Notes: generated by a model not told the origin, from the sequence alone. Shown: positions 2,032 through 17,292, counted from the stretch's first letter. The stretch is 23,629 nucleotides of DNA from an uncultured virus (IMG/VR IMGVR_UViG_3300015360_000031) (IMGVR_UViG_3300015360_000031), one strand, 5' to 3'. Program-made: numbers and translations.

Positions 2032-4851
2032 GTGGAAGAGCAACCCGTCCTCGTAGACACCGCAGAGCAGACCGCGATCACCAGCTTCGTCGCCAGTGGC
2101 AAAGGCAACCTGATCGTGGATGCGCTTGCCGGGACCGGTAAGTGCCTCGGATCCGGTACACCCGTGTTGCTGTTCGATGGGCGTGTGATCCCCGTTGAAG
2201 ATGTGCGAACCGGGATGCTCTTGATGGGTCCAGATAGCGAGCCACGGCGCGTTCTCACAACAAACATCGGTCGAGGCCCGCTGTATCGCATCAGCCCTGT
2301 AAAGGGTGAGTCGTGGGTCTGCAACGACATCCATGTGATGACGTTGACGGGGACCGGTTTCTGGCACGATCAGATCCGTGATGTGCCGCTGAACGAGCAT
2401 CTTGCAGCATGCGGTGAACAACGCCCAGATCGAAACTGGAAGTTGCTACGCACGGGTGTGAAGTGGCCCGCCCAACCCATCCCGCTGGATCCATACCTCG
2501 CAGGACTGTGGCTAGGGGACGGTACCTTTGACTCACCGACGATCACGAATGCTGATCCAGAGGTGGCTGCCTATTGCCGTAAGATTGCGCCGCAGTTGGG
2601 TGTTGAGTGTGTGGTCACTGAAACGCCACGCAACAATTCAAACCTGATCCGTTTTCGTTTTGGTGCGAGGGGTACGTTCAACACGCGCACCGAACGCAAC
2701 GCGTTTCAGGATGCTGTTCAAGCCTTCAAGGTTGACAATGAAAAAGTGATCCCGTGGTGCTACTTGAGCAACTCACGGGAGAATCGACTTGCGTTACTCG
2801 CTGGGCTGATCGACACCGATGGGTTTGTCACATCAGGCTGCGTCGAGATCACGTCGAAATACGATCGGCTCGCAGACGCCATTTTGTTCCTTGCACGTTC
2901 GCTGGGTTTCGCTGCCTACATGAGCAAGAAGCGCGCAACGATCAAATCGCTGAACTTCGAGGGCGTCTACAACCGCATCATGATCTCAGGCGATATCGAC
3001 GAGATTCCATGCTTGGTTAAAAGGCGTCAAAGTGCGCCGCGCACGCAGATCAAGCGTGTGACTGTTACGGGGTGGGACGCAGAACCAATCGGCGAGGGCG
3101 ATTACTATGGCTTCACGCTTGACGGCGATGGCCGATTCTTGCTCGGTGACTTCACGGTCACGCACAACACAACGACGATCATCAAGTCGCTCGCGCAGAT
3201 CCCTCAGCGCAGCATCTTGATGTGTGCGTTCAACAAGCGGATCGCGATCGAGCTCGAAGCCAAGCTCCCGAAGATGCCCAAGGGTACCGCGGTGCACGTC
3301 AAGACGTTTCACGCGATCGGGCTATCGATCGTCAAGCACCACTTTCGGCACCTTCAGGTTTCTGCGCAAGGCACCGAAGAGCTGATCAACCGCGCCGCGG
3401 GCAAAGAGATCTCGTTCAAGATGCGGCGTTGCGCAGTGAACTTGCTGCGCATGATCAAGGAGACCCGTGCCGAGCGCATCCCACCAACAGCCGATGAAGC
3501 GCACGCGATCGGGCTCGAATACGCGTTGTTCAAGACGCTCAATGAAGTTGAGATCAGCCTGTGCATCGAGGCTGTACGTGACGCGTACATCCTCAGCGCG
3601 AACTTGAACGAGCGCGCGACGATCGATTTCTGCGACATGGTGTGGGCCGCCGCCACGCTCGACCTCGCACCGCCGTCACGGTATCAGGCGATCTTCGTAG
3701 ACGAGTTGCAGGACATCTCCGAACCGCAGCTCAAGCTGCTGCTCAAGCTGATGGTCCCAGGCACCGGACGGTTCATCGGTGTCGGTGACAAGAACCAGCA
3801 AATCTATGGCTGGCGTGGCTCGATGGGCGCCAAGGTGTGGAAGGTTGCGCACGATCAGCTGGGCTCGACGTTCCTACCGCTCACGATGACGTGGCGCTGC
3901 TCGGCGGCCATCGTGAAGGAAGCGAACGGGATCGTCCCACAACTGCGCGCCCGCCCGAACGCACCCGCCGGGCACGTTGTTGATACGAAGTGGTTGGCGT
4001 TGCCTGCGGCGATTCGGGCTGGCGTGCCGATCGCGCACGGCAAGCACACGTTCGTACTTTCACGGACCAACGCGAGCCTGCTCGACGTCGCACTGTACCT
4101 GTGGCGTGAACGCGTCCAGTTCGAGCTCAGCGGGGGTGAGGATGTGCTTGAGCCGTTGTTCAGCATCCTCGACAAGCTCGATCTGCAAAGCGAGGAGACG
4201 TATCGAAAGACGCTCGCGAAGTGGGTGGATGAGGAGCTAGCGCGGGCCGAGAAGCTCAACGCCACGGCCTACGCGGATCGCGTCGAGGAGCAGTTCAACA
4301 TGCTTCAGATCGCGATCACGTACACCAAGCCGAAGATGGTGCGGAAGCTGCTCACCGACCTCATGGTGCCGAACAGCGCCGGTGTGCTGCTCTCGACGGT
4401 ACACAAGGTCAAGGGCCTCGAAGCGGAGCGGGTGTTCCTGCTCAAGCAAACGTTCGCGCGGTACGCGAAACGCCCATGCTTCACGTGCCGCGGTAAAGTG
4501 AGCCCAGGTTGCGGAGTCTGCCACGGCACCGGTTTCTTCAAGGAAGAGAAGATTCCGCAGGAGGAGCTCAACATCGAGTACGTCGCGATCACGCGCGCGA
4601 AGAGCCGGCTCGTGTGGGTCGATATCGAAGATCGATTCACAATCACGGAAGCCACTGAGGATCCGCTCTTGGCGGTCGTGCGCCATCAGCTCGGTGTCGT
4701 CTCCGAGCGTGATCAGCTGATCGCAGCGGTGGGTCGGTTCGAGAACGGCGGCATGCCGCATGCGATGGCAGAAGGCTTTGCCGATCCGCCGCGGGGTGAC
4801 CATGCACGCGACACAATGATGACGGACTTCTACGAGTCTGAGGAGCCGTGA
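2032..4851 (+). CDS. UvrD/Rep-like SF1 helicase, intein-containing
   Basis: Walker A ALAGTGK|TT (split by the intein), AFNK, KTFHAIG, VDELQD, VGDKNQQIYGWRG, LTMTWRC, LSTVHKVKGLE and YVAITRAK motifs. Confidence 0.93.
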   Translation: MEEQPVLVDTAEQTAITSFVASGKGNLIVDALAGTGKCLGSGTPVLLFDGRVIPVEDVRTGMLLMGPDSEPRRVLTTNIGRGPLYRISPVKGESWVCNDIHVMTLTGTGFWHDQIRDVPLNEHLAACGEQRPDRNWKLLRTGVKWPAQPIPLDPYLAGLWLGDGTFDSPTITNADPEVAAYCRKIAPQLGVECVVTETPRNNSNLIRFRFGARGTFNTRTERNAFQDAVQAFKVDNEKVIPWCYLSNSRENRLALLAGLIDTDGFVTSGCVEITSKYDRLADAILFLARSLGFAAYMSKKRATIKSLNFEGVYNRIMISGDIDEIPCLVKRRQSAPRTQIKRVTVTGWDAEPIGEGDYYGFTLDGDGRFLLGDFTVTHNTTTIIKSLAQIPQRSILMCAFNKRIAIELEAKLPKMPKGTAVHVKTFHAIGLSIVKHHFRHLQVSAQGTEELINRAAGKEISFKMRRCAVNLLRMIKETRAERIPPTADEAHAIGLEYALFKTLNEVEISLCIEAVRDAYILSANLNERATIDFCDMVWAAATLDLAPPSRYQAIFVDELQDISEPQLKLLLKLMVPGTGRFIGVGDKNQQIYGWRGSMGAKVWKVAHDQLGSTFLPLTMTWRCSAAIVKEANGIVPQLRARPNAPAGHVVDTKWLALPAAIRAGVPIAHGKHTFVLSRTNASLLDVALYLWRERVQFELSGGEDVLEPLFSILDKLDLQSEETYRKTLAKWVDEELARAEKLNATAYADRVEEQFNMLQIAITYTKPKMVRKLLTDLMVPNSAGVLLSTVHKVKGLEAERVFLLKQTFARYAKRPCFTCRGKVSPGCGVCHGTGFFKEEKIPQEELNIEYVAITRAKSRLVWVDIEDRFTITEATEDPLLAVVRHQLGVVSERDQLIAAVGRFENGGMPHAMAEGFADPPRGDHARDTMMTDFYESEEP
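2143..3168 (+). mobile_element. Intein (342 aa) with LAGLIDADG homing endonuclease
   Basis: Starts CLGSGTPVLLFDG and ends FTVTHN followed by Thr(+1). Contains LAGLWLGDG and LLAGLIDTDG motifs. Removing it restores GTGKTT. Confidence 0.95.
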
Positions 4852-6148: not shown

Positions 6149-6253
6149 ATGGCAAAGCGCAAGAGCACCAAGAGCTGCAAGTTCGGCAAGGTTTCCCGTG
6201 GCAAGCGTAAGGGGCAGTGCCGCAAGTCACGCAAGACGCGCCGCAAGCGCTAG
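6149..6253 (+). CDS. 34-aa protamine-like basic peptide (not in ORF track)
   Basis: MAKRKSTKSCKFGKVSRGKRKGQCRKSRKTRRKR has 18 K/R and no acidic residue. AAGGAG RBS at 6136-6141; TTGACG at 6100. Confidence 0.75.
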   Translation: MAKRKSTKSCKFGKVSRGKRKGQCRKSRKTRRKR

Positions 6254-6324: not shown

Positions 6325-6648
6325 ATGCACCTGATCACGACCTACGATTCGACCAATGAATTTTCTCCTGGGGACCCTGGACAGCGTGTCCGTGACGTCT
6401 ACGTTCAGGGGAGCCCCGGCGGGTACCAGTCGTTTGCCTGGAACCGCGTCGCGACCGACTCTCAGCTGAGCGGGCTCGGCCTGTCGTGGGCCGGCCTGCC
6501 GATCTGGGCGCAGGTCGCGATCGTCGCTGCGGGTGCGGTCGCCACCGGCTACTTCGGCATGTCGAAGTTCGGTGACAGCCACATCAAGCCCGCGCTGCGC
6601 AAGGTCGGCGTCAACCTCGCCGGCCCGCGCACGCGTCGGCGGCGCTAG
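6325..6648 (+). CDS. Single-TM protein with basic tail, putative virion membrane protein
   Basis: AAGGAG RBS; LSGLG motif, hydrophobic WAQVAIVAAGAVATGYF, C-terminal RTRRRR. Confidence 0.7.
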   Translation: MHLITTYDSTNEFSPGDPGQRVRDVYVQGSPGGYQSFAWNRVATDSQLSGLGLSWAGLPIWAQVAIVAAGAVATGYFGMSKFGDSHIKPALRKVGVNLAGPRTRRRR

Positions 6649-7022
6649 TGCTGATCCAGCACAACCAGGTCGGGACAATGATGCGCCGCCGTGGTGGCCT
6701 CGGCTCGCCGTCGTACGACCTCGCCAAGCAGCTTGTTGGGCTGCTCGAAGAGAACGACTACCCGTCGGCGGTGGCGATCCTCAGCGGCTTGTCCGCGGTC
6801 GAGCTCCAAACCGTTGCGACCAAGGCGATCGCGCTCGGCGCTGACCCGAGCGCGGTGCGCGGCCTCATCGCGACCCTCGGGCAGAACGAGATCATCGAGG
6901 TCACCGGCTCGGCGCCGCTCATCCGTGCGATCGGTCAGCCGCTCCCGTTGTGGCTCAAGATCCTGCTCGGCGCGGGCGTCGTGTTCGCGGCGGCGTGGGC
7001 CTACAAGAAGTGGAGGAAGTGA
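6648..7022 (+). CDS. C-terminally anchored membrane protein
   Basis: RRRGGLG near the N-terminus; C-terminal LWLKILLGAGVVFAAAWAYKKWRK. Confidence 0.7.
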   Translation: MLIQHNQVGTMMRRRGGLGSPSYDLAKQLVGLLEENDYPSAVAILSGLSAVELQTVATKAIALGADPSAVRGLIATLGQNEIIEVTGSAPLIRAIGQPLPLWLKILLGAGVVFAAAWAYKKWRK

Positions 7023-7264
7023 TGGCTCGCAAGCGCTACAAGCCCTCGGTGGGTGCGATCTGCAAGATCGGCACGCTCGCACACAACAGGCAGTTCACCG
7101 CGGCCGAGCTGCGCGAGTACAGCGGGCGCAGCTATGGCGGCCCCCAGCTGATCTCGTGGCTGCGTAAGCACGGCCACATCGAGACTGTCGGGCGTGGCAA
7201 GCTCTACCCGACGGCCAAGGGATGGAAGATGATCGAGTCGGCGTGCACGAAGCGGAAGCGCTGA
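7022..7264 (+). CDS. Basic 80-aa protein, possibly winged-helix
   Basis: TGATG coupling; FTAAEL…LISWLRKHGHIETVGRGKLYPTAKG resembles a wHTH wing. Confidence 0.6.
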   Translation: MARKRYKPSVGAICKIGTLAHNRQFTAAELREYSGRSYGGPQLISWLRKHGHIETVGRGKLYPTAKGWKMIESACTKRKR

Positions 7265-7509
7265 TGCCGATGATCATGTCCCTCGAAGGGCCGCGCACCA
7301 CCGTCATCGACGCGATGCGCAGCGAGCTCTACCGCGCCACGCCGCGCTCGATCTACCGGCTCGGGCTCGGCGCGTCCGACATCTGGTACAAGTTCGGCAT
7401 GTCGCCCACGATCTGGACCGGCATCTTCGGCGTCCTCGCTGGCGCCTGGCTCGCGAGCTCGAAGTCGGGCTTCGCGAAGAACGTTCGTAACCGTGTAGGT
7501 GGTCGCTAA
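7264..7509 (+). CDS. Small single-TM protein
   Basis: TGATG coupling; LGLG motif then IWTGIFGVLAGAWLA and a basic tail. Confidence 0.65.
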   Translation: MPMIMSLEGPRTTVIDAMRSELYRATPRSIYRLGLGASDIWYKFGMSPTIWTGIFGVLAGAWLASSKSGFAKNVRNRVGGR

Positions 7510-7511
7510 CC

Positions 7512-7718
7512 ATGGCTCGCAAGAAAACGCCGAAGGCAAACATCCACTGGCACCAGATCAAGCCAGGCATGTGCGTGCGCGACGAGGGTAGCTACTTCTC
7601 GGTGCAGGTCACCAAGACGAAGCGCGCCGTCGCGAACTGGTCGTCGACCGATGCTCGTCAGGCGCAGAACGATCTGAAGCACCGCGCGTCGACCGGCGTC
7701 TACTGCCCCCGTAAGTAA
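7512..7718 (+). CDS. Small basic hypothetical protein
   Basis: 68 aa, MARKK start, tightly packed in the operon. Confidence 0.65.
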   Translation: MARKKTPKANIHWHQIKPGMCVRDEGSYFSVQVTKTKRAVANWSSTDARQAQNDLKHRASTGVYCPRK

Positions 7719-7720
7719 CC

Positions 7721-8803
7721 ATGGCAGTGTGGCGGCGATACCGGCGCCCGGCCTGGCTCGACGTGCTCGCTGCACAAGGGTCGGGGCTCGGCCGTCCGTC
7801 GGTGCCTGCGCCGGCGCCTGCCCGCTGGTGGATGCAGCCTGTCAAGAGCGAGCCTGACCTCAAGGCGTGCTTCTCGACGAAGACGGCGGCGCTCAAGTCG
7901 TTCATCGAGGCGAACCGCCAGCTGATCGACGAGTACGGCGGCCTCGACTATCAGGTGAGCCCGTCGGAGTTCGACGCGATCAACCATCGCTACGGGCTGC
8001 ACAAGGGCCGCGCGGTGCGCACGATCGCCGACGCGCTGTGGGCGGCGATGCCTGCGGGCAAGCCGTTCTGCCTCGACCGCATCGACCTCGAAGTGCTCAA
8101 CGACACGAGCCCGGCGCGCCAGCGCGCAGACGCCGCGTTCCGGCTACCCGACGAGGTTTACAGCAACCCAGACGCGATCGCGGCGGAAGGGGCGGCATAC
8201 TACCGCGACATCGAGGCTCGCACCGACGAGGACGCGCCGCGCGAGGAGTGGGCGCCCGACGCGCCCCGACCGACCAAGCTGCGCCGCAACCGCGGTGATG
8301 ACCCGGCCGCGCGGGCGTTCATCGATGAGGCGGATGAGACCGCAGCCGTGTACGCCACCGCGGCCCGCGATGCGACCTGGCGACCCAAGCGCAAGCGGCG
8401 ATCGACCCCCCGCGAGGCGGCCCCTGTCGAGCTCGCCCCGCGAAAGCCGCCCGGTAACCGCAAACCCGTGCGAAAAAAGAGAACCCACATGGCGAAGCGC
8501 ATCGACGATTCACACCAGCCGTTCAAGCGTGTTCGCAAGATCGGCCCCGGCCCGAAGCGCCACCCACCCGTGCTCGAAGTGAAGCAGTGGAAGTGCCGCA
8601 AGGGCAAGAAGAAGTACACGCAGGTCTGCACCTGGATCGGTGGTGGCGAGAAGCGCGCGCCGACGATCAACCGCATGAACAAGGGGAAGAAGAAGAAGTA
8701 CAACAAGCTCTACCGCGCGTGGGCGAAGAAGAACCGCGGCACGAAGGGCGGCCGGCGCGCGAGCTACCGTTGCCGCAAGACGCGCAACACGGCCTGCAAG
8801 TAG
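7721..8803 (+). CDS. Hypothetical protein with very basic C-terminal domain (probable internal start at 8489)
   Basis: 360-aa ORF with GSGLG near the N-terminus; the last 104 aa are K/R-rich and start MAKR. Confidence 0.65.
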   Translation: MAVWRRYRRPAWLDVLAAQGSGLGRPSVPAPAPARWWMQPVKSEPDLKACFSTKTAALKSFIEANRQLIDEYGGLDYQVSPSEFDAINHRYGLHKGRAVRTIADALWAAMPAGKPFCLDRIDLEVLNDTSPARQRADAAFRLPDEVYSNPDAIAAEGAAYYRDIEARTDEDAPREEWAPDAPRPTKLRRNRGDDPAARAFIDEADETAAVYATAARDATWRPKRKRRSTPREAAPVELAPRKPPGNRKPVRKKRTHMAKRIDDSHQPFKRVRKIGPGPKRHPPVLEVKQWKCRKGKKKYTQVCTWIGGGEKRAPTINRMNKGKKKKYNKLYRAWAKKNRGTKGGRRASYRCRKTRNTACK

Positions 8804-8830
8804 CCCGAGGCTGATCAGCGGATTCCTGGA

Positions 8831-8852
8831 AACCCCGGGGTTGGGGTAGGCT
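8831..8852 (+). promoter_or_regulatory. 12-bp palindrome plus leaderless -10 element
   Basis: AACCCCGGGGTT (8831-8842), then TAGGCT (8847-8852) 6 nt before GTG 8859. Confidence 0.5.
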
Positions 8853-8858
8853 GGAGTG

Positions 8859-9407
8859 GTGGACCGCAAGATCGAGGTAAGCCCCGCACTGATCGGTGTC
8901 GGTGCGTGCGTGGCCCTCACCTGGGTTGCGGTCCTGTGGACCATCTTTCGGAAGCCCTTGAGCTCCGTTCCGCCGATCAACATCTGGAACGTCAACGGTG
9001 GCGACACCTCGCGGAGCCTCGCGGTCCCGCAGCTGATGGCACCCCCGCCGGCGACGGCGCCGCAGCAGACACCGGCGATGGCAGCAGCCGATCGCAGCTC
9101 GCGATCGAGCGCGCTCGCGACCTACCAGCTCAGCACCTCGAACCCGTCACGGCTTGCCACAGCCGCCGGTCCGCGGTTCTGGGTCGCCGAAGTCCGCACC
9201 GTCGGCCCCCCGGGCTCGTTCGCGATCGTCTCGCTCGTCGCGAACGCGCTCACGCAGGGCAACGTGCCCGGCTACGACGCGATCGTGATCCCGGCGGGCG
9301 GTAGCGAGCGAATCCGGCTCGCGCCCGGTCAGGCGCTGTTCGGCGTCGGCAACGTCAACAATACGGTCGTCTCGGTGAACTGCTCCGAGGAGTACCCTGC
9401 GTCGTGA
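8859..9407 (+). CDS. N-terminally anchored protein with beta-rich C-terminal domain (putative structural)
   Basis: TM segment LIGVGACVALTWVAVLWTIF, Pro/Ala linker, beta-strand-rich end. Confidence 0.65.
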   Translation: MDRKIEVSPALIGVGACVALTWVAVLWTIFRKPLSSVPPINIWNVNGGDTSRSLAVPQLMAPPPATAPQQTPAMAAADRSSRSSALATYQLSTSNPSRLATAAGPRFWVAEVRTVGPPGSFAIVSLVANALTQGNVPGYDAIVIPAGGSERIRLAPGQALFGVGNVNNTVVSVNCSEEYPAS

Positions 9408-9796
9408 GTGGCGGCCTCGTCAGTGGCGCCGCAGTCCGTGATCAGACGCCCGACGCCGATGACCAGGGCATGGTCGTCCGTCCGATCGGCACGATCACCG
9501 TACTGGACCCGGCAGCACTCGGCGCATCCTCGACCGTTGCGGCGAGCTTGATCGCCGTCACCCTGCTCGCGGCGAACACGTCACGGCTTGGCTTCACGAT
9601 CTACAACACGTCGCTCGCCGACACGCTGTACGTCCTCGTCGGTGCGGGCGTCGTGTCGGCAACTTCGTTCACGGTTGCGCTCGTTCCAGGGGCGTATTAC
9701 GAGAGCCCGGTGCGCTACGTTGGCGGGGTGACGGGCATCTGGGATCCGGCAGCTACCGGCGACGCGCTCATCACTGAATTCACACCGGTGCCCTGA
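9404..9796 (+). CDS. Small beta-sandwich phage structural/spike-associated protein
   Basis: LLAANTSRLGFTIYN…LYV…FTVALVPGAYYE…VTGIW is a pattern recurrent in phage structural regions; coupled to the fibre gene. Confidence 0.6.
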   Translation: MSGGLVSGAAVRDQTPDADDQGMVVRPIGTITVLDPAALGASSTVAASLIAVTLLAANTSRLGFTIYNTSLADTLYVLVGAGVVSATSFTVALVPGAYYESPVRYVGGVTGIWDPAATGDALITEFTPVP

Positions 9797-11355
9797 TGCC
9801 TCTGTTCCCGCCCCCATTCGTGATCGGTCTCATCGCCATCTCGGCCGTCGGATCGTCTGTGTCGTCAGGCACGGTCGTTTTCTCGAACTCGAACAACGTC
9901 ACGTTCGGGATGTCGGGCGCGACGATCACAGCCTCAGTCGCAGGCGGTGGTGGTGGTGGGATCGCGGCGGCGGCAGGCACGCAGACCGCAATCACGGGCA
10001 CGATCGTGCTCGCCAACTCCAACGGCATCAGCTTTGGAATGAGCGGCAGCTCGCAGATCACCGCCAGCTTCTCGACGCTCATCTACTCGAACAGCCACAA
10101 CGTCTCGTTTGGGATCGTTGGCTCGACGCTCACAGCATCGGTGGTGGTCCCCGCGCAGTCGACCGGCCCCGCCGCTTTGAGCGCCGGCACGACGCAGGCG
10201 ACGAGCGGTACGATCTCGTTCGCTGACTCGAACGGCGTCTCGTTCGGGCTCGACGGGCAGACGATCACTGCATCGATCTTGCCGCCGACCCCAGAGACCC
10301 CGTTCGCCGTGTCAGCTAACGGCGGCTCACAGAGCACCGGCACCATCACGTTCGCGAACGGCGGCAACGTGTCGTTCGGCTACGCGGCGGGTGTGATCAC
10401 CGCGACGGCGACGTTTCCTGCGCAGACCGCATTCGTTCTATCGAACAGCAACAACGTCAGCTTTGGCACGAACGGCTCGACGGTCACCGCGAACGCGACG
10501 TTCCCTGCGGAGACACCGTTTGGTGTCAGCGCTGGAACGCAGAGCGCATCCACCGGCACGCTCGTGTTCTCGAACTCCAACGGCGTCACGTTCGGGATGT
10601 CGGGGAGCTCGCGGATCACGGCCAGCGTTGACGCGATCAAGTCGATCTCGGGCGGCACCACGCGCGCAAGTGGTGGCGAGGTCGTGTTCTCGAACTCGAA
10701 CGGCGTGTCGTTTGGCCTCGACGGGAACACGATGACGGCCAGCGTTGACGCTGGCGTGACGCTGAATTACTGGAATCCGCAAGACGCATACGCGCAGGTA
10801 ACCGGCAACCAAGGCCAGGCGACGTTGCACGTGCAGCCCGGTCAGGCCCCCAACGTCACCTTCGATCGGGTGATCGTCCCGGTCTACTTCTCGGGCGCGT
10901 CGAACTCCACGATGACGCTCTCGTATACGCAGCTGTGGGGCGTGTTCACGCGCACAGGCTCGACATTGTCACAGCTGATGTCGACGTCGATCACCGGAAC
11001 GTTGGGTCACTCAGGTAACGTGAACTCGGCGCTGAACAACGGCGTTCGGTTGTTGACCATCCCTTTTGCGAGCTCGCTGTCAGCCGATCAATACTACTTC
11101 GTGAACATGCAGCGCTCATCGAGCAGCAGCGCCAACGCGACCTTCGCGCAGATACTTGCGAGCCAGCTGAACTCGAACTTTTCGGGAATCCTCGGGGTGG
11201 CTAGCAACGCCACCATTCAGTACACGCGCGGGCTCGGCGTTTACACCGCGTCCTCGACGGGGATTCCGGTCTCAATCGCATTCTCGCAGATCAACGGATC
11301 CAACTCGTTGGTGCTGCGCCAACCCATCTTCTACGTCGCCAACGGAACCTTCTAG
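9796..11355 (+). CDS. Fibre/spike protein with 8 imperfect repeats and a C-terminal head domain
   Basis: Eight copies of GT(V/I)xF(S/A)NSNGVSFGxxGxxITAS; Ser/Thr/Gly-rich; non-repetitive C-terminal region of about 200 aa. Confidence 0.75.
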   Translation: MPLFPPPFVIGLIAISAVGSSVSSGTVVFSNSNNVTFGMSGATITASVAGGGGGGIAAAAGTQTAITGTIVLANSNGISFGMSGSSQITASFSTLIYSNSHNVSFGIVGSTLTASVVVPAQSTGPAALSAGTTQATSGTISFADSNGVSFGLDGQTITASILPPTPETPFAVSANGGSQSTGTITFANGGNVSFGYAAGVITATATFPAQTAFVLSNSNNVSFGTNGSTVTANATFPAETPFGVSAGTQSASTGTLVFSNSNGVTFGMSGSSRITASVDAIKSISGGTTRASGGEVVFSNSNGVSFGLDGNTMTASVDAGVTLNYWNPQDAYAQVTGNQGQATLHVQPGQAPNVTFDRVIVPVYFSGASNSTMTLSYTQLWGVFTRTGSTLSQLMSTSITGTLGHSGNVNSALNNGVRLLTIPFASSLSADQYYFVNMQRSSSSSANATFAQILASQLNSNFSGILGVASNATIQYTRGLGVYTASSTGIPVSIAFSQINGSNSLVLRQPIFYVANGTF

Positions 11356-11380
11356 GTCGCCAGTCGGGTACCAGGATCAC

Positions 11381-11926
11381 ATGAACAAGCGCCAAGAACT
11401 CGAAGCCGCCAGGAACATGGAGCCCGACTGCGCCTACGGAGCAGTAGGGGCCGGGAGGTACACGCGGGGGGTCAGCGAACGTCGCGAAGCGCACACTGCT
11501 CGGACCCAGGTGTCCCGTGTTCTTCTCGACCGCGATCCGAGTGAGGGGGCACTGCGATCGCCGGCGCCGCTCCGATACCCGAGCGCTCAATCACCGATCA
11601 CAATCGAGGTCGTGCGCCAAGAAGATGGGTTGTCGTTTCGGCTCAAGGCCGATAGTCACCGGCGGTTGCAGGCTCAGGGGATCGCGCTGCCGCCGGTCGG
11701 GTCGATTCACATCGGCACCACGATGCGCGACGACTTCGAGACCGTTCATGATCCCTTCGCGCGTCACGTCGCGCCGCTGTTGACGAACATGCCGCTGGAT
11801 CAGCTTGTCGTCCTCGGTGGTGTGCAGTTCGTCTCAGCGGGAAGTAGCGATGTCATTTGGGAGCTGAGGTCGTTGCTGACGTTGGTCGACAAGGCCAAGT
11901 CGCACGAGCTGGACCCCACCATCTAG
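11381..11926 (+). CDS. Hypothetical protein
   Basis: 181-aa ORF filling the gap; start codon uncertain; no recognised motif. Confidence 0.5.
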   Translation: MNKRQELEAARNMEPDCAYGAVGAGRYTRGVSERREAHTARTQVSRVLLDRDPSEGALRSPAPLRYPSAQSPITIEVVRQEDGLSFRLKADSHRRLQAQGIALPPVGSIHIGTTMRDDFETVHDPFARHVAPLLTNMPLDQLVVLGGVQFVSAGSSDVIWELRSLLTLVDKAKSHELDPTI

Positions 11927-12249
11927 ATCGGGTCGCGCATCGTACCGGCGCACGTGCAGTTCGAGCGGTGCCGCGCAAGCATCTCGCACAGCGGGTCGCG
12001 CCTGGCCTCGACGACTTCGAGCTCGGGCTCGGGCTCGGGCTCGGGCAGCACGCCGAACGCCTGTGCTTCTGCGGCTGTCATCGGTTGCGCGAACGGGTGC
12101 GCACACGGACCGTCATGATGGTCATCCTCACGCGTGCAGGGCGCGAAGCCTGGCGGGGTGAAGCCATGGCCACTCGGCAGTGACTCAACGTCGGTCGGTT
12201 CACCATCAAGGCGGATCTCGAAGTCGTCGAAGTCGGCTGGGCTCGGCAT
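11923..12249 (-). CDS. Acidic protein with C-terminal CHCC Zn-finger-like motif (paralog of 12263..12544)
   Basis: FDDFEIRLD…RDPLCEMLARHRSNCTCAGTMR. TAGCCT lies 7 nt upstream of ATG 12249. Confidence 0.65.
   Translation of the reverse strand: MPSPADFDDFEIRLDGEPTDVESLPSGHGFTPPGFAPCTREDDHHDGPCAHPFAQPMTAAEAQAFGVLPEPEPEPELEVVEARRDPLCEMLARHRSNCTCAGTMRDPI
12022..12045. repeat. (CTCGGG)x4 tandem repeat encoding PEPEPEPE
   Basis: Read directly from the sequence. Confidence 0.85.
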
Positions 12250-12262
12250 GGCTCCGAGGCTA

Positions 12263-12544
12263 CTACAGCGCTTCGCGCATCGCACCAGTGCAATCGCAGT
12301 TAGGTCGGTGCACCTCGACGCAGAGCGGATCGCGGTTTGGGATCGTCTCGGCGGTAGTCACGACCGCATCGAGCTGCACGGTCACACTCACCAAGTCCTC
12401 GATGAGCGTCGGTTGCACATCGATGTGTGCGAGATCGACGGGGATCTCGAACTCCTCGAACAACAGGATCAGCGGGGTCTGCGCTTGCCGGCGTACGGCA
12501 CGCTTGCGGGTCTTGGTCTTGGTCGCGTGAGTGTGGTGGTGCAT
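12263..12544 (-). CDS. Protein with C-terminal CHCC Zn-finger-like motif (paralog of 11923..12249)
   Basis: FEEFEIPVD…RDPLCVEVHRPNCDCTGAMR. TAGCCT lies 6 nt upstream of the ATG. Confidence 0.65.
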   Translation of the reverse strand: MHHHTHATKTKTRKRAVRRQAQTPLILLFEEFEIPVDLAHIDVQPTLIEDLVSVTVQLDAVVTTAETIPNRDPLCVEVHRPNCDCTGAMREAL

Positions 12545-12652
12545 GGATCAAGGCTAAGCGTGCCGGTGGATTCTTCGACGGTAACTCGCGGGCGCCTCAC
12601 CTGCGCGGGTTTGCGCTCGCCGTGACGTCACCGCGCGTTGTACGCTACAGGC

Positions 12653-13432
12653 ATGATCCGCGTTCCGCTCTGGTTCGGCCTCCTTGCGGGCGCGGCGACG
12701 GCCGGCCTCGCGATCGCCGCGGTGGCATCGCAGCCTCAGCGTCGGCGCGGGCCGCTCGGGGGTTGGCGTGATGACTACGATCGCGCCTCCGCAGCGCCCG
12801 AAGAGCATGCTGACGAGCTCGAAAAGCGGGCACGCGGCGCCGGCGCGCACGGTGCCCTGACCTACGTTGGTATGGGCGCAGAGGGTGTCACGCTCTGCGA
12901 CGAGCGCGGCAAGGCGTTCAAGATCAGCCGCACCAGCAGCGGTGGTGTCGACGGCAAACAGCGCCTGCGTGACGAAGCTGAGTGGCTCATGACCGCAGGC
13001 AAGATCACCAACATCAAGCAGTACGTGCCGCGTGGCGTGAGCTACGATGCGACGCACGACGTCATCGTCCGCGAGTGCCTCACAGCGCGCGCTGGCAACC
13101 GTAGCAGCAGCCAGCGGTTGTGGGATTTGCATCAGCGTCTTACAGCGGCGGTCGCGCCGTACGGCCACGGGCGCCCCGAGTACAAGATCAACTCGTACGT
13201 CTACACGCGGCGCGGGCCGGTGCTTGTCGACGCCGGGTTCGCGGTGAAGCGTGGCGACAAGCTGATCAAGGAAGCGCTCGACGTCGCGAACGGCCGGAAG
13301 AAGATGAACAGCTTCCAGATCAAAGAGCTAGCGTGGGAGCTGCGTATGGAGCGCGGCGAGACGATCCCGCCACCGATCGCGAACAAGGTGCTCCTGCGGC
13401 TTCAGGCGATCGAGCCAGGCGTCGAGCTCTGA
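12653..13432 (+). CDS. Membrane-anchored protein-kinase-like protein (atypical catalytic loop)
   Basis: N-terminal TM; VGMGAEG Gly loop, AFK, DEAE, PEYKINS and LVDAG in kinase order. TACGCT lies 6 nt before the ATG. Confidence 0.65.
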   Translation: MIRVPLWFGLLAGAATAGLAIAAVASQPQRRRGPLGGWRDDYDRASAAPEEHADELEKRARGAGAHGALTYVGMGAEGVTLCDERGKAFKISRTSSGGVDGKQRLRDEAEWLMTAGKITNIKQYVPRGVSYDATHDVIVRECLTARAGNRSSSQRLWDLHQRLTAAVAPYGHGRPEYKINSYVYTRRGPVLVDAGFAVKRGDKLIKEALDVANGRKKMNSFQIKELAWELRMERGETIPPPIANKVLLRLQAIEPGVEL

Positions 13433-15027
13433 GCACGCCCCTCGGCGTCCTGGTTGGCCCATGCCTTGGCTTCAGTGAGCGCGTCGACCATCCCGTAATC
13501 GCCGCCGGGGTAGGTGACTGTCCACCGGTTCCGCCCGGCGTTGTTGCCGTCGATGATGTAAAGCCCAGCCGGCGACGTCGCGTGGTAGACGCCCGGGCTG
13601 ATCTTTTTCCAGCGCAGCACGCTTGAGCCTTTGAGCCCGGTCGCGCGCTTGTAGGCTGGGATCTTGTTCGCGTCATCGAACGGCCCAGCGACGCGCACGC
13701 CGCACGGCTCGCAGGTGAGCCCGTACCGCGGATCATCCATCGTCAACCCACCACCGCACTCGGGGCACTTGAGCTTCTTCACGCGCTTACCCTTGAGCCC
13801 GGCGTTCGCCTTCTGCACCGCGATCACCGCCTCCGAGCCCTTCGCAAATTGCTCGGTGCCCGTGAACGCGTCGACCTCGGCCATCGTCGCCGGCTCGATC
13901 ACGTCAGGGTGCCAGTCGTCAGTCAGCTCGTCGGCGATCTTGTCGAGCGTCTTGCGCGTCGTGTGACCGATCGGTCCGTCGGCATCGAACGACATCACGC
14001 GGATCGAACCCTCCTCCGGGTTCGACATCTCAGGCGTCTTCACGAGCAGGATCTTCCGCGTGCCGTGCGTGATGAACACCGCGTCGTGCTTCGCGAGCGC
14101 CTCGCGCATCCCGGCTTTGCGCGCTGCTGACTTCGCGGCGATGCGCTCGAACCAGTCATCCTTGCCGAAGTTCTCGTCGTCGTCGTCGTCATCGGCGGCG
14201 CCTTCGAGCTCTGGCTTCATGCTTGGCGCTCGCAGGAAGCCTTCGAGCTCGCCCGGGCCGGCCGCGAGCAAGCCACGAACGTCACCAAGCTCGGTGAACT
14301 CCGCGTCGATCACGTCGTCCTCGTCGACACCGACCGCCTCGGCACCGTCACCGTTGAGCGTGTAGAGCCCCTTGCGGTGCACGGTGTAGCCGGCGACGAG
14401 CGCGACGCCGATCCCGAGCAGGCCCCAGCCGAGCCCCTTCATCACCGTCGTCGGCGACACCTTGCGGACAAGCGTGTCGGCGAGGATCAGCGAGAGCGTG
14501 CGCGCCCCGGCCGCCGTGTAGTGCAGCCCGTCGCCGGCGCGCTGAGCGAGCTCGGAGAGCGGCCGACCATCGATGAACCGCATCCCGAACACGCTCGCCA
14601 TCGTCTTGACGACGATCTGGACACCCGCCGGCGGCTTGTTCGAGATGAACGGCCCGATCGCCCAGACCTCGGCGCCGGCCCCACGGTAGGCGTCGCGGAT
14701 CGCGGTGAACGCGTCGCGCACCTTCCGTGGGTCGATCCCGACATCGTTGGTGCCGAGCATCACGATCACCTTGGTGGGCTTCCACGCGAGGTCAGCCGCG
14801 ATCAGGTCGCCAGCAGCCTCACGGCCCCAGAAGTTCCACGCCGAGCGACTCACGCGCGCGTTGGTGCGCACCGCGGCGGCGCCTTGCTCGGCGAGCAGGC
14901 TCGCGAGCAGATCCCCAGGGGCCGAGCTCGAACGCATCGAGCCCGCGTTGACGTTCCAGACCTCGCCGCTGGTGTGGCGGGTCAGGCTGTCACCGAAGAT
15001 GAGGATTCGCTCGCCGCGCGCGTTCAT
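13402..15027 (-). CDS. SGNH/GDSL hydrolase fused to a TM segment and modular C-terminal region with Zn ribbon
   Basis: IFGDSL, MLGTND and GDGLHY blocks; TM GLGWGLLGIGVALVAGY; CPEC…CEPC. TAGCAT lies 7 nt before ATG 15027. Confidence 0.8.
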   Translation of the reverse strand: MNARGERILIFGDSLTRHTSGEVWNVNAGSMRSSSAPGDLLASLLAEQGAAAVRTNARVSRSAWNFWGREAAGDLIAADLAWKPTKVIVMLGTNDVGIDPRKVRDAFTAIRDAYRGAGAEVWAIGPFISNKPPAGVQIVVKTMASVFGMRFIDGRPLSELAQRAGDGLHYTAAGARTLSLILADTLVRKVSPTTVMKGLGWGLLGIGVALVAGYTVHRKGLYTLNGDGAEAVGVDEDDVIDAEFTELGDVRGLLAAGPGELEGFLRAPSMKPELEGAADDDDDDENFGKDDWFERIAAKSAARKAGMREALAKHDAVFITHGTRKILLVKTPEMSNPEEGSIRVMSFDADGPIGHTTRKTLDKIADELTDDWHPDVIEPATMAEVDAFTGTEQFAKGSEAVIAVQKANAGLKGKRVKKLKCPECGGGLTMDDPRYGLTCEPCGVRVAGPFDDANKIPAYKRATGLKGSSVLRWKKISPGVYHATSPAGLYIIDGNNAGRNRWTVTYPGGDYGMVDALTEAKAWANQDAEGRAQSSTPGSIA

Positions 15028-16214: not shown

Positions 16215-16576
16215 GTCGCAACCACTAGCGCGCGGACTTCGGGCAACCACGGCAAGATGCCCTCGCGCTCTTTGTCGAGCGGCATCAGCACGTAGTGGTC
16301 GACATCGAACATCACGTACGCGGCGCGATCCACGGTGACAAGCCACCAGGCGAGGTTGCAGCCGAGCAGCTGATCGATGGCGGTGATCCCCATCAAAGCG
16401 CCCGGTTCGAGCGCTGGTACGCCTTCACCCTCGACGACGATCGCGCAGCCGACAAGCTCTTCGCGGACGAACGCGCCCTTGAGCTGCGTGATCATCTCGT
16501 CGCTGGCGCCAGGCCACCAGAAGAACGGCTCGTTACGGGTGTTGATCAGGGCTGCGATCTGCGGCTGGATGGTCAT
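16211..16576 (-). CDS. Hypothetical protein
   Basis: 121 aa; ATGA overlaps at both ends; AAGGAG-like AAAGAG upstream. Confidence 0.6.
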   Translation of the reverse strand: MTIQPQIAALINTRNEPFFWWPGASDEMITQLKGAFVREELVGCAIVVEGEGVPALEPGALMGITAIDQLLGCNLAWWLVTVDRAAYVMFDVDHYVLMPLDKEREGILPWLPEVRALVVAT

Positions 16577-17292
16577 CGGAGTCTCTTTCGGAGTAGTAGG
16601 GTTGCGGTGAGGATCAGCGCGAGTGGGGAGCCCCCGGTGGCGGCGCACCCCTCAGCTGGTTCCGGTTCGAGCTCAGGATCGATCTCGATGATCTCACCGG
16701 TACCTGGGCCGAGGCGTTCGAGCAAGAGGCCGTGCGAGTTCTGCATCGCGCGACACGGTGTGGGATCGAACCCGCATGGGCGCGCCGTCGTCTCGCCGCA
16801 TACCGTCAGCTCGTCTTGAAACGCGCGCTTGCCGAGGAACTTCATGTACGACATCGGGTCAGCCGCGAGCAGCGTGTGATCGAGTCCGTATGCGTGCGCG
16901 ATCTCTTGTGCCATGGTCTCGCACACGACCTGCCCGCGAGGCGCAAGCACGTCGGTAAACGTGAACACTATTGCGTTCTCGATGACGTCGCACGTGGTCG
17001 AGAGCGATGCGAGTCCGTTGGTGGTCGCTGGCCGACCGAACTGCGACGGATCACCGCCAAACACCGCTTCGACGTGTGGGGCTGGGCTTGGGTCGAGCTC
17101 GACGAACACAACGTCGTAGCGCGCGAACATGTTGCGCAAGCATACCGTGGTCTCATGCCACAAGGTCTCCGACGCACCCCACGCAGGCACGTCAACAGGA
17201 CCGGGCGCGACCGCGGACACGTTGCGCCGTGAGTCGTTCCAACCGCGAGTGATCGAAACACCATCACGGTTGAGGTAGATCGTTCGGGTCAT
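16573..17292 (-). CDS. Zincin-like Cys-rich protein with MYXO-CTERM-like C-terminal sorting signal
   Basis: QEIAHAYGLDH…DPMSY (metzincin-like, first His replaced by Gln); ends EGCAATGGSPLALILTATLLLRKRLR. Confidence 0.75.
   Translation of the reverse strand: MTRTIYLNRDGVSITRGWNDSRRNVSAVAPGPVDVPAWGASETLWHETTVCLRNMFARYDVVFVELDPSPAPHVEAVFGGDPSQFGRPATTNGLASLSTTCDVIENAIVFTFTDVLAPRGQVVCETMAQEIAHAYGLDHTLLAADPMSYMKFLGKRAFQDELTVCGETTARPCGFDPTPCRAMQNSHGLLLERLGPGTGEIIEIDPELEPEPAEGCAATGGSPLALILTATLLLRKRLR

Follow-up and report, generated by a model that had tools for sequence, protein, structure and literature searches.

The stretch of DNA analysed here, 23,629 nucleotides from an uncultured virus (IMG/VR IMGVR_UViG_3300015360_000031; hereafter the window), carries between positions 6149 and 15027 a block of genes whose products share a short Leu/Gly motif, LxG or GLG, often in the longer forms LxGLG or GLxG. 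The motif lies on the flanks of transmembrane (TM) segments and at the borders of protein modules, modules are exchanged at these places, and a Cys-His-Asp enzyme found in relatives of the window has the motif behind its own membrane anchor. The motif is probably a cleavage code read at the protein level, serving maturation of the virion and release of cargo; its logic would be adenovirus-like, with an enzyme of another fold. The linker code itself is real and well supported, in a virus group that is apparently undescribed; we found no description of the group or of the motif in the literature. New here are an independent map of the modules, swaps between strains at the linkers, a codon control and the contrast with a second linker code built on Asn-Pro.

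Scans against Pfam and PHROG gave a viral gene content for the window, with PolA, ThyX, an intein-bearing UvrD, a Dam-like methylase, a dCMP deaminase and a tyrosine integrase, and in the block an SGNH domain as nearly the sole annotation. The DNA datasets with matches to the window are microbial-mat metagenomes, and no RNA dataset is among the listed matches. The SGNH gene as query led to a complete relative, G002, of 85,650 bp with terminal repeats, which has the genes at 6149 and 6325 and the replication block in common with the window. The 236 amino acid (aa) capsid candidate of G002 as query retrieved 19 viral records of 39–221 kb, 11 of which were taken whole and their genes called with an in-house caller (the 11 related genomes). 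Because 14 of 15 window queries match genes in these 11 genomes we assign the window to the capsid-candidate group: judged by its genes, it is part of a bacterial virus group, apparently undescribed, with complete genomes of about 78–138 kb, and longer contigs too. A copy of the capsid operon adjoins host metabolic genes in the chromosome of a Gemmatimonadota metagenome-assembled genome (MAG; L101, CP070815.1), a position that speaks for bacterial hosts and for integration. The remaining five MAG matches to the operon are short contigs that may be misbinned. GLG proteins are present in the L101 provirus, which is possibly truncated.

All of the motifs named in an earlier account of the window, the sequence-only reading, could be located: QLSGLG at 6463, NLAGPRTRRRR at 6613, RRRGGLG at 6684, SLEG at 7279, RLGLG at 7357, GSGLG at 7778 and RRRGPLG at 12740 on the plus strand, and TLNG at 14361, ELG at 14292, ELEG at 14250 and 14211 and GLKG at 13800 and 13638 on the minus strand. 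In the 12 open reading frames (ORFs) of the block GLG occurs 6 times against 1.8 expected from per-protein shuffles (p 0.005), and in the other 29 ORFs of the window once against 1.8. The enriched forms are GLG and LxGLG, plus GLxG in the tails of SGNH proteins. Among the 1683 proteins of the 11 related genomes 225 have a single TM segment, and outside that segment GLG is their most enriched tripeptide (68 vs. 24.4), with LxGLG at 21 vs. 2.1; as a sequence pattern, [LMI]xGxG occurs 75 times vs. 44.4 in single-TM proteins. The XGG form shows no enrichment in single-TM proteins (39 vs. 44.5), nor does GLG in the long TM-free proteins of these genomes (34 vs. 44.9). With one representative per family, GLG stands at 32 vs. 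10.5 and LxGLG at 11 vs. 0.9 in 142 TM families, and at 68 vs. 55.4 and 14 vs. 4.4 in 900 other families. The tailed phage Mx8, used as a control, gave a null result for GLG (10 vs. 9.7), and the motif is absent from the capsid (0/14) and PolA (0/10) families. Many proteins have it among their first 10 residues, and it is frequent in the gene pair upstream of the capsid gene (7/10 and 9/10). The nearer of these (G002 67053–67715, family 19) has LNGLG-type repeats in tandem, spaced by about 11 aa; family 19 is likely a scaffold or a major substrate.

The SGNH protein (13402..15027, minus strand) has an esterase head (Pfam GDSL/SGNH), a TM segment and a cassette tail with LNG, LEG, LEG, GLKG and GLKG. 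A search of the whole library with this tail (126 matches) resolved three homology blocks with GLKG at 184–187 and 238–241, at both internal borders, blocks B and C being defined mostly by small motif-free proteins. Module A (13798..14199, minus) is an acidic leader with a domain of about 120 aa that reaches from ELEG to the first GLKG and forms an independent homology block (about 45–188 of the tail). Module B (13639..13788, minus; block about 186–242), flanked by both GLKG, has weak Pfam matches to Zn ribbons, and module C (13426..13623, minus; block 243–308), behind the second GLKG, is often a stand-alone or N-terminal domain. The two ELEG enclose a spacer (14212..14233, minus) where a close strain has an extra module of 84 codons (P0129, L093). 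The polyprotein-like tail of the sequence-only reading is borne out: the three modules occur independently of one another and GLKG marks each internal border, which is the strongest evidence for the linker code. The ELG at 14292 is not retained in P0131 and P0134, two relatives sharing that segment, and is a doubtful instance.

The tail matches include 17 further SGNH-headed proteins, which are shuffled cassettes, and in the seven relatives with a match the SGNH head is alone in three and cargo-bearing in four, two of these tails holding the kinase-like module that has an anchor of its own in the window. In 21 SGNH tails GLxG occurs 24 times vs. 4.0 expected, with none in the heads, and LxG 85 times vs. 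50.9. LxG or GLG lies within 10 aa of 33 of the 78 alignment-defined borders in SGNH tails against a background of 19.8%, compared with 11 for AxG, 13 for VxG, 4 for LxE and 5 for LxK, control triplets with backgrounds of 10–16%. The proposal that the motif marks module boundaries is supported for a Gly motif at the protein level; RRRGGLG is missing from the two homologs inspected. No embedded zincin or assemblin peptidase and no LPD domain was found by Pfam (E 0.5) in five SGNH proteins or tails. A third linker code, 'HA', was considered and is unsupported, its signal lying partly inside module C and its flank counts being small.

Differences between strains give a further view of the linkers. 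Comparison in four runs gave 14 joints; nine with short sides (21–44 letters, mostly in the repeat gene at 9796) were excluded and five counted. A >99% identical strain, whose contig is 87 kb long, was covered over 20 kb. Two of the five are whole-gene deletions away from the motif (11363/11923 and 12293/12584); the genes at 11381–11926 and 12263–12544 are missing from some strains through these indels (11364–11922 and 12294–12583). All three in-gene joints with long flanks sit at linkers. In strain X6 module B is exchanged in frame between both GLKG (joint 13622/13788), in strain X8 the 84 codons are added between the two ELEG (joint 14211/14234), and in the >99% identical strain a 75-aa extension takes the place of the Arg tail of the 6325 protein directly behind NLAGP. 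With a distance of 6 nucleotides, picked after the joints were seen, five of six joint ends fall at or within it from the motif, compared with 7.3% of coding bases (p ~1e-5); counted as 3/3 joints within two genes, p is 0.006.

A transglutaminase-like gene (PF01841, E 7.7e-7, over the cut-off) is present in all 19 viral records that bear the capsid gene and in four of five MAGs. Its triad C162/H195/D214 does not vary in any of the 11 aligned rows, including gp34 of the phage SSIP-1, and in the group the enzyme has an N-terminal TM segment, a basic flank, (L)xGLG or LG and then the domain, with L37-G38 near-invariant. A cysteine protease had been proposed from the window sequence; the relatives do hold a Cys-His-Asp enzyme, but one of transglutaminase fold and not an adenain. 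PF01841 was the only conserved cysteine enzyme obtained, the adenain family not having been searched by name. LapG, a bacterial transglutaminase-like cysteine proteinase, has a Cys-His-Asp triad on a transglutaminase-like fold and cuts site-specifically between small residues, as described in the accessible part of PMC3032545, and because it has the same fold it is plausible that the viral enzyme is a site-specific protease, even though LapG is a cellular periplasmic enzyme. A single-sequence fold of the viral enzyme reached a predicted local distance difference test (pLDDT) score of 44 and was not used. In G010 (24172–25677) and L106 about 300 aa are inserted in frame near the catalytic Cys and split the enzyme gene; the insertion is probably an intein.

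Other proteins with module A have Asn-Pro (NP), often behind Arg or Lys, where the group has LxG, and in places one and the same pair of modules is joined by NP (P0217, P0198) or by LxG (P0136). The 38 matches compared upstream of module A comprise 18 with LxG, five with NP, one mixed and 14 with neither. Eleven viral records found via the kinase-like part of an NP-type alignment have [RK]xNP at 38 vs. 20.8 and GLG at 17 vs. 23.6, an enzyme match in one record and no match to the 236-aa capsid profile in any, a contrast that comes from single-query searches and from loci not centred on structural genes. It is suggestive of the NP linker belonging to a different virus lineage without this capsid profile and mostly without the enzyme. 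Arg/Lys-x-Asn-Pro joins occur in P0217, P0198, P0191, P0234 and P0244 and in L108–L118; no genomes carrying P0149, P0217 or P0198 were found.

The 236-aa protein of G002 has 423 homolog clusters, the best 120 at 65–100% identity. Its model is one beta-sandwich, a single jelly roll (pLDDT 81), whose best fold match is the capsid protein of Sulfolobus polyhedral virus 1 (SPV1; Foldseek E 9e-3; VIA Z 8.2, which is modest; root-mean-square deviation 3.5 over 134 residues); further fold matches are other jelly rolls, the single type being best. From this model and its conservation we infer that the protein is a capsid candidate, and the double-jelly-roll capsid expected from the window sequence gives way to a single one. 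None of 13 related records had a match to HK97 capsid (PF05065) or terminase (PF03237), one family each, with positive controls detected, and the scans of G002 (69 by Pfam and 43 by PHROG of its 109 proteins of at least 75 aa) gave only spike-type pectate-lyase matches. The A32 packaging ATPase (PF04665) was likewise found in 0 of 13 and DUF87 (PF01935) in 2 of 13, so the expected FtsK/HerA-type packaging ATPase is not conserved. A Walker-A census of the 11 genomes returned helicases, AAA_24-like and sporadic proteins, and the relatives may still have a very divergent motor; a conserved 550-aa ATPase was rejected as packaging motor, being similar to primase-helicases, and SSIP-1 gp40 has no homolog in the 11 related genomes. 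G002 and 12 other records are complete at 78–138 kb, with the capsid candidate and without a recognisable packaging ATPase or terminase.

The many single-TM proteins (225/1683) and the homology with SSIP-1 suggest that the particle is icosahedral with a lipid membrane inside. The sequence-only reading had already envisaged a tailless virus containing lipid, and a bacterial virus without a tail and probably with a membrane is supported; the combination of HK97 capsid, terminase and an unconserved motif that would have refuted that reading did not appear in the relatives. A 699-aa Gln/Pro-rich coiled-coil protein (G002 54380–56479) is present in 10 of 11 genomes; its layout is similar to that of SSIP-1 ORF33, which precedes gp34, and no sequence match was obtained.

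In the mechanism that we propose, membrane anchors would load proteins into the virion membrane, and during or after assembly the transglutaminase-fold enzyme would cut at or beside Gly, trimming leaders and Arg tails and freeing the enzyme itself. The cuts would also release cargo (kinase-like module, Zn ribbon, module A) for delivery into the next host. A short site may suffice for this, so that any domain fused behind an anchor via LxG would become releasable cargo, which would account for the shuffling of cassettes. The small basic proteins (6149, 8489) may condense DNA, and the missing packaging ATPase would fit with this, as in the nucleoprotein core of SPV1. As to the scissile bond, LxGLG would fit the adenovirus form XGX↓G, while LEG-A and LKG-D point to a cut after Gly. 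A version with all motifs on one membrane face was rejected, the motif being on both TM sides. A broader proposal, which we hold tentatively and rate somewhat below even, is that a widespread, undescribed group of bacterial viruses, large, with single jelly-roll capsids and no recognisable packaging motor, has plug-in cargo that is LxG-anchored, released by a virion protease and swapped between strains, and that other lineages use Arg/Lys-x-Asn-Pro without the enzyme as a lineage-specific lock and key.

Several observations weigh against cleavage at the motif. No cleavage product has been observed, and the capsid and enzyme genes are seen only in relatives of the window. The enrichment of LxG expected by the sequence-only reading did not appear in that form: bare LxG is at chance both in the block (21 vs. 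17.8, p 0.24), where GLG is enriched instead (6 vs. 1.8), and in the rest of the window (30 vs. 27.8), and it is not enriched genome-wide in the related genomes. The motif is degenerate, with 18 residues at x and with LG, LxA and LxS variants, and 45 of the 78 tail borders have no motif within 10 aa. It also lies on both the basic and the non-basic side of TM segments, and access for one enzyme on one face of closed membranes would therefore be hard. The Gemmatimonadota provirus has no enzyme match despite its capsid gene and GLG proteins, the similarity between the enzyme profile and LapG is weak (E 0.19), and the distance used for the strain joints was chosen in hindsight.

The motif could instead be an uncut binding or sorting tag that docks on the capsid or a scaffold and so brings proteins to the membrane under assembly, with the enzyme having another task such as cross-linking or deamidation; we regard this as unlikely. 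The tandem copies in the product of the gene just upstream of the capsid gene, like the copies at N-termini, would suit avidity tags, Pfam labels the enzyme transglutaminase-like and nothing more, and the provirus lacks an enzyme match. For a tag, however, one copy per chain would do, yet SGNH tails bear copies at successive borders, and the motif parts Arg tails of 4–6 residues from an anchor. It is quite improbable that a host protease cuts the motif, or that it is cut only after entry, rather than by the viral enzyme. Its presence on both membrane faces would agree with this, and it may resemble a Cys-less lipobox, L-x-G/A; but the viral enzyme is kept in all 19 viral records with the motif behind its own anchor, and the records with a related kinase-like module, 10 of 11 without an enzyme match, have no GLG excess in the loci examined (17 vs. 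23.6 over all 11).

The strain joints, which end at or within 6 nucleotides of linker codons, also bear on a DNA-level explanation in which the motif is a footprint of module shuffling at short homologies, or a flexible linker, with no protein partner. The five tail linkers of the window all use CTC and two of them have 12 nucleotides in common. Yet the 73 LxGLG sites comprise 70 distinct 15-mers, and codon use at the motif follows the context controls except for a mild excess of CTC at the first Leu (0.60 vs. 0.48), which argues that the constraint acts at the protein level, although microhomology may assist shuffling. Since the motif also occurs at N-termini and ahead of short Arg tails, with nothing fused, we consider this explanation decidedly improbable. 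Chance together with the helix-packing glycines of TM segments in a GC-rich genome is very improbable and largely refuted: bare LxG is at its chance level and one window GLG (14428–14436) lies at a TM start, but the enrichment survives TM masking and the collapse of families, and Mx8 was null.

The sites of adenovirus protease (AVP, adenain) are (M/I/L)XGG↓X and (M/I/L)XGX↓G in the available text of PMC4246237. As in that system, a short Leu/Gly code would lie on unrelated virion and basic core proteins beside a cysteine enzyme of the virus, and LxGLG is XGX↓G literally. The differences are the bacterial host, the anchored enzyme of transglutaminase fold, the mostly membrane-protein substrates, the lack of XGG enrichment and a cleavage that is predicted. 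SSIP-1 is a membrane-containing icosahedral phage according to the accessible parts of PMC6356626 and PMC6260650. Its gp34, annotated as structural, is homologous to the enzyme and has an identical triad, its gp48 is a homolog of the window gene at 9404, and G[LM]G is found in gp34, 36, 37, 52 and 53. It differs in its 44-kb genome, in the C-terminal anchoring of gp34 and in that no SGNH cassette protein was seen, and the 236-aa capsid candidate matched none of its proteins in sequence.

SPV1 (Portogloboviridae) has a single jelly-roll shell, a lipid layer on the inside and a core of nucleoprotein (PMC8459092). The match to its capsid protein shows a fold only, and it differs in being an archaeal virus of 20 kb with no polymerase, its profile mentioning no protease (PMC8459092). 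The polyvalent proteins of phages and conjugative elements (Iyer et al. 2017, PMC5512222) are a cargo of several shuffled domains for which packaging and proteolytic release have been predicted. Several shuffled domains stand in one chain here too, but the polyvalent proteins belong mostly to portal-terminase phages with an embedded zincin or assemblin, as far as the accessible text goes (PMC5512222), whereas the cargo here is membrane-anchored and the enzyme would act in trans. The words 'linker' and 'transglutaminase' do not occur in the available main text of that paper (PMC5512222).

The linker-cleavage reading can be put to a direct test with a single small enzyme and a cultured phage, SSIP-1. 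For membrane-containing icosahedral virions, maturation by a protease is a hallmark of viruses of eukaryotes, adeno- and poxviruses for example (PMC4246237 for adenovirus). In the accessible portions of the main survey of prokaryotic double-jelly-roll viruses (PMC5894146) and of a review of membrane-containing phages (PMC6356626) the words 'protease' and 'proteolytic', respectively, do not occur. If the reading is true, a bacterial version on another enzyme fold would mean that this maturation strategy arose independently; it would also provide a new site-specific protease and explain the delivery of variable cargo in a large and common virus group (423 capsid clusters).

The further block genes described next lie on the plus strand. 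The first, overlooked in the sequence-only reading, is a 34-aa Lys/Arg/Cys-rich ORF (6149..6253; homologs in G002, G004, L029 and L030), a candidate DNA-condensing core protein without the linker motif. The membrane anchor protein at 6325..6648 consists of a soluble N-part, LSGLG (6466–6480), a TM segment, a basic stretch, LAG (6616–6624) and an Arg tail, and its family has GLG ahead of the TM segment in 12 of 15 aligned members and LxG ahead of the Arg tail in 11 of 15. The C-anchored membrane protein at 6648..7022 (homologs in G008, G012, L017 and L021) has RRRGGLG close to its N-terminus, the likelier start being ATG 6678; given the two homologs without it, this instance is doubtful. Two small basic proteins without the motif lie at 7022..7264, with a weak winged-helix (AbiEi_4) match in Pfam under the curated cut-off, and at 7512..7718, with homologs in G004 and G005. 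Between them the small protein at 7264..7509 has SLEG and RLGLG ahead of a hydrophobic stretch; in the homolog from G007 SLEG is preserved and SLKG stands close to the position of RLGLG. Two modules in one frame make up 7721..8803, GSGLG with an N-module (aa 30–159) and, from ATG 8489 on, a C-module that is very basic, and relatives encode them as separate genes, with the G017 N-module coming after a TM segment and LAG.

Further along, the N-anchored protein at 8856..9407 has a C-part similar to a 107-aa gene of the relatives' capsid operon, and the gene at 9404..9796 is a homolog of gp48, annotated as structural in SSIP-1 (pairwise BLASTP E 1e-7, 39% over 57 aa). The Ser/Thr/Gly repeat protein at 9796..11355, a candidate spike or fibre, has no Pfam or PHROG match and several paralogous homologs in G004, G005, G007 and G009. 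Over window positions 8829–10503 the >99% identical strain (L093) lacks the genes at 8856 and 9404, and the 5' part of its repeat gene is shorter and different; this putative spike region is variable between strains. The N-anchored kinase-like module at 12653..13432 has RRRGPLG behind its TM segment and occurs as cargo fused behind the SGNH head and TM segment in G018, G019 and P0136. It has no Pfam match, and the label kinase is a tentative one, given from sequence motifs. That most of these proteins have one TM segment was partly upheld: a hydropathy scan of the >99% identical strain called one in the proteins that correspond to 6325, 6648, the kinase-like gene and the SGNH gene, but none in those corresponding to 7264 and 7721, the latter read from a later start.

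Outside the block the UvrD helicase is broken by a LAGLIDADG intein (window 2032–4851). A zincin-like protein (16573–17289, minus strand) has the sequence QEIAHAYGLDH, a weak Reprolysin match (E 0.05) and a C-terminal hydrophobic anchor, and no homolog of it was found in the 11 related genomes. The anchor may resemble the MYXO-CTERM tail of Myxococcales, and the protein is a possible hint of the host and a possible second protease in the window.

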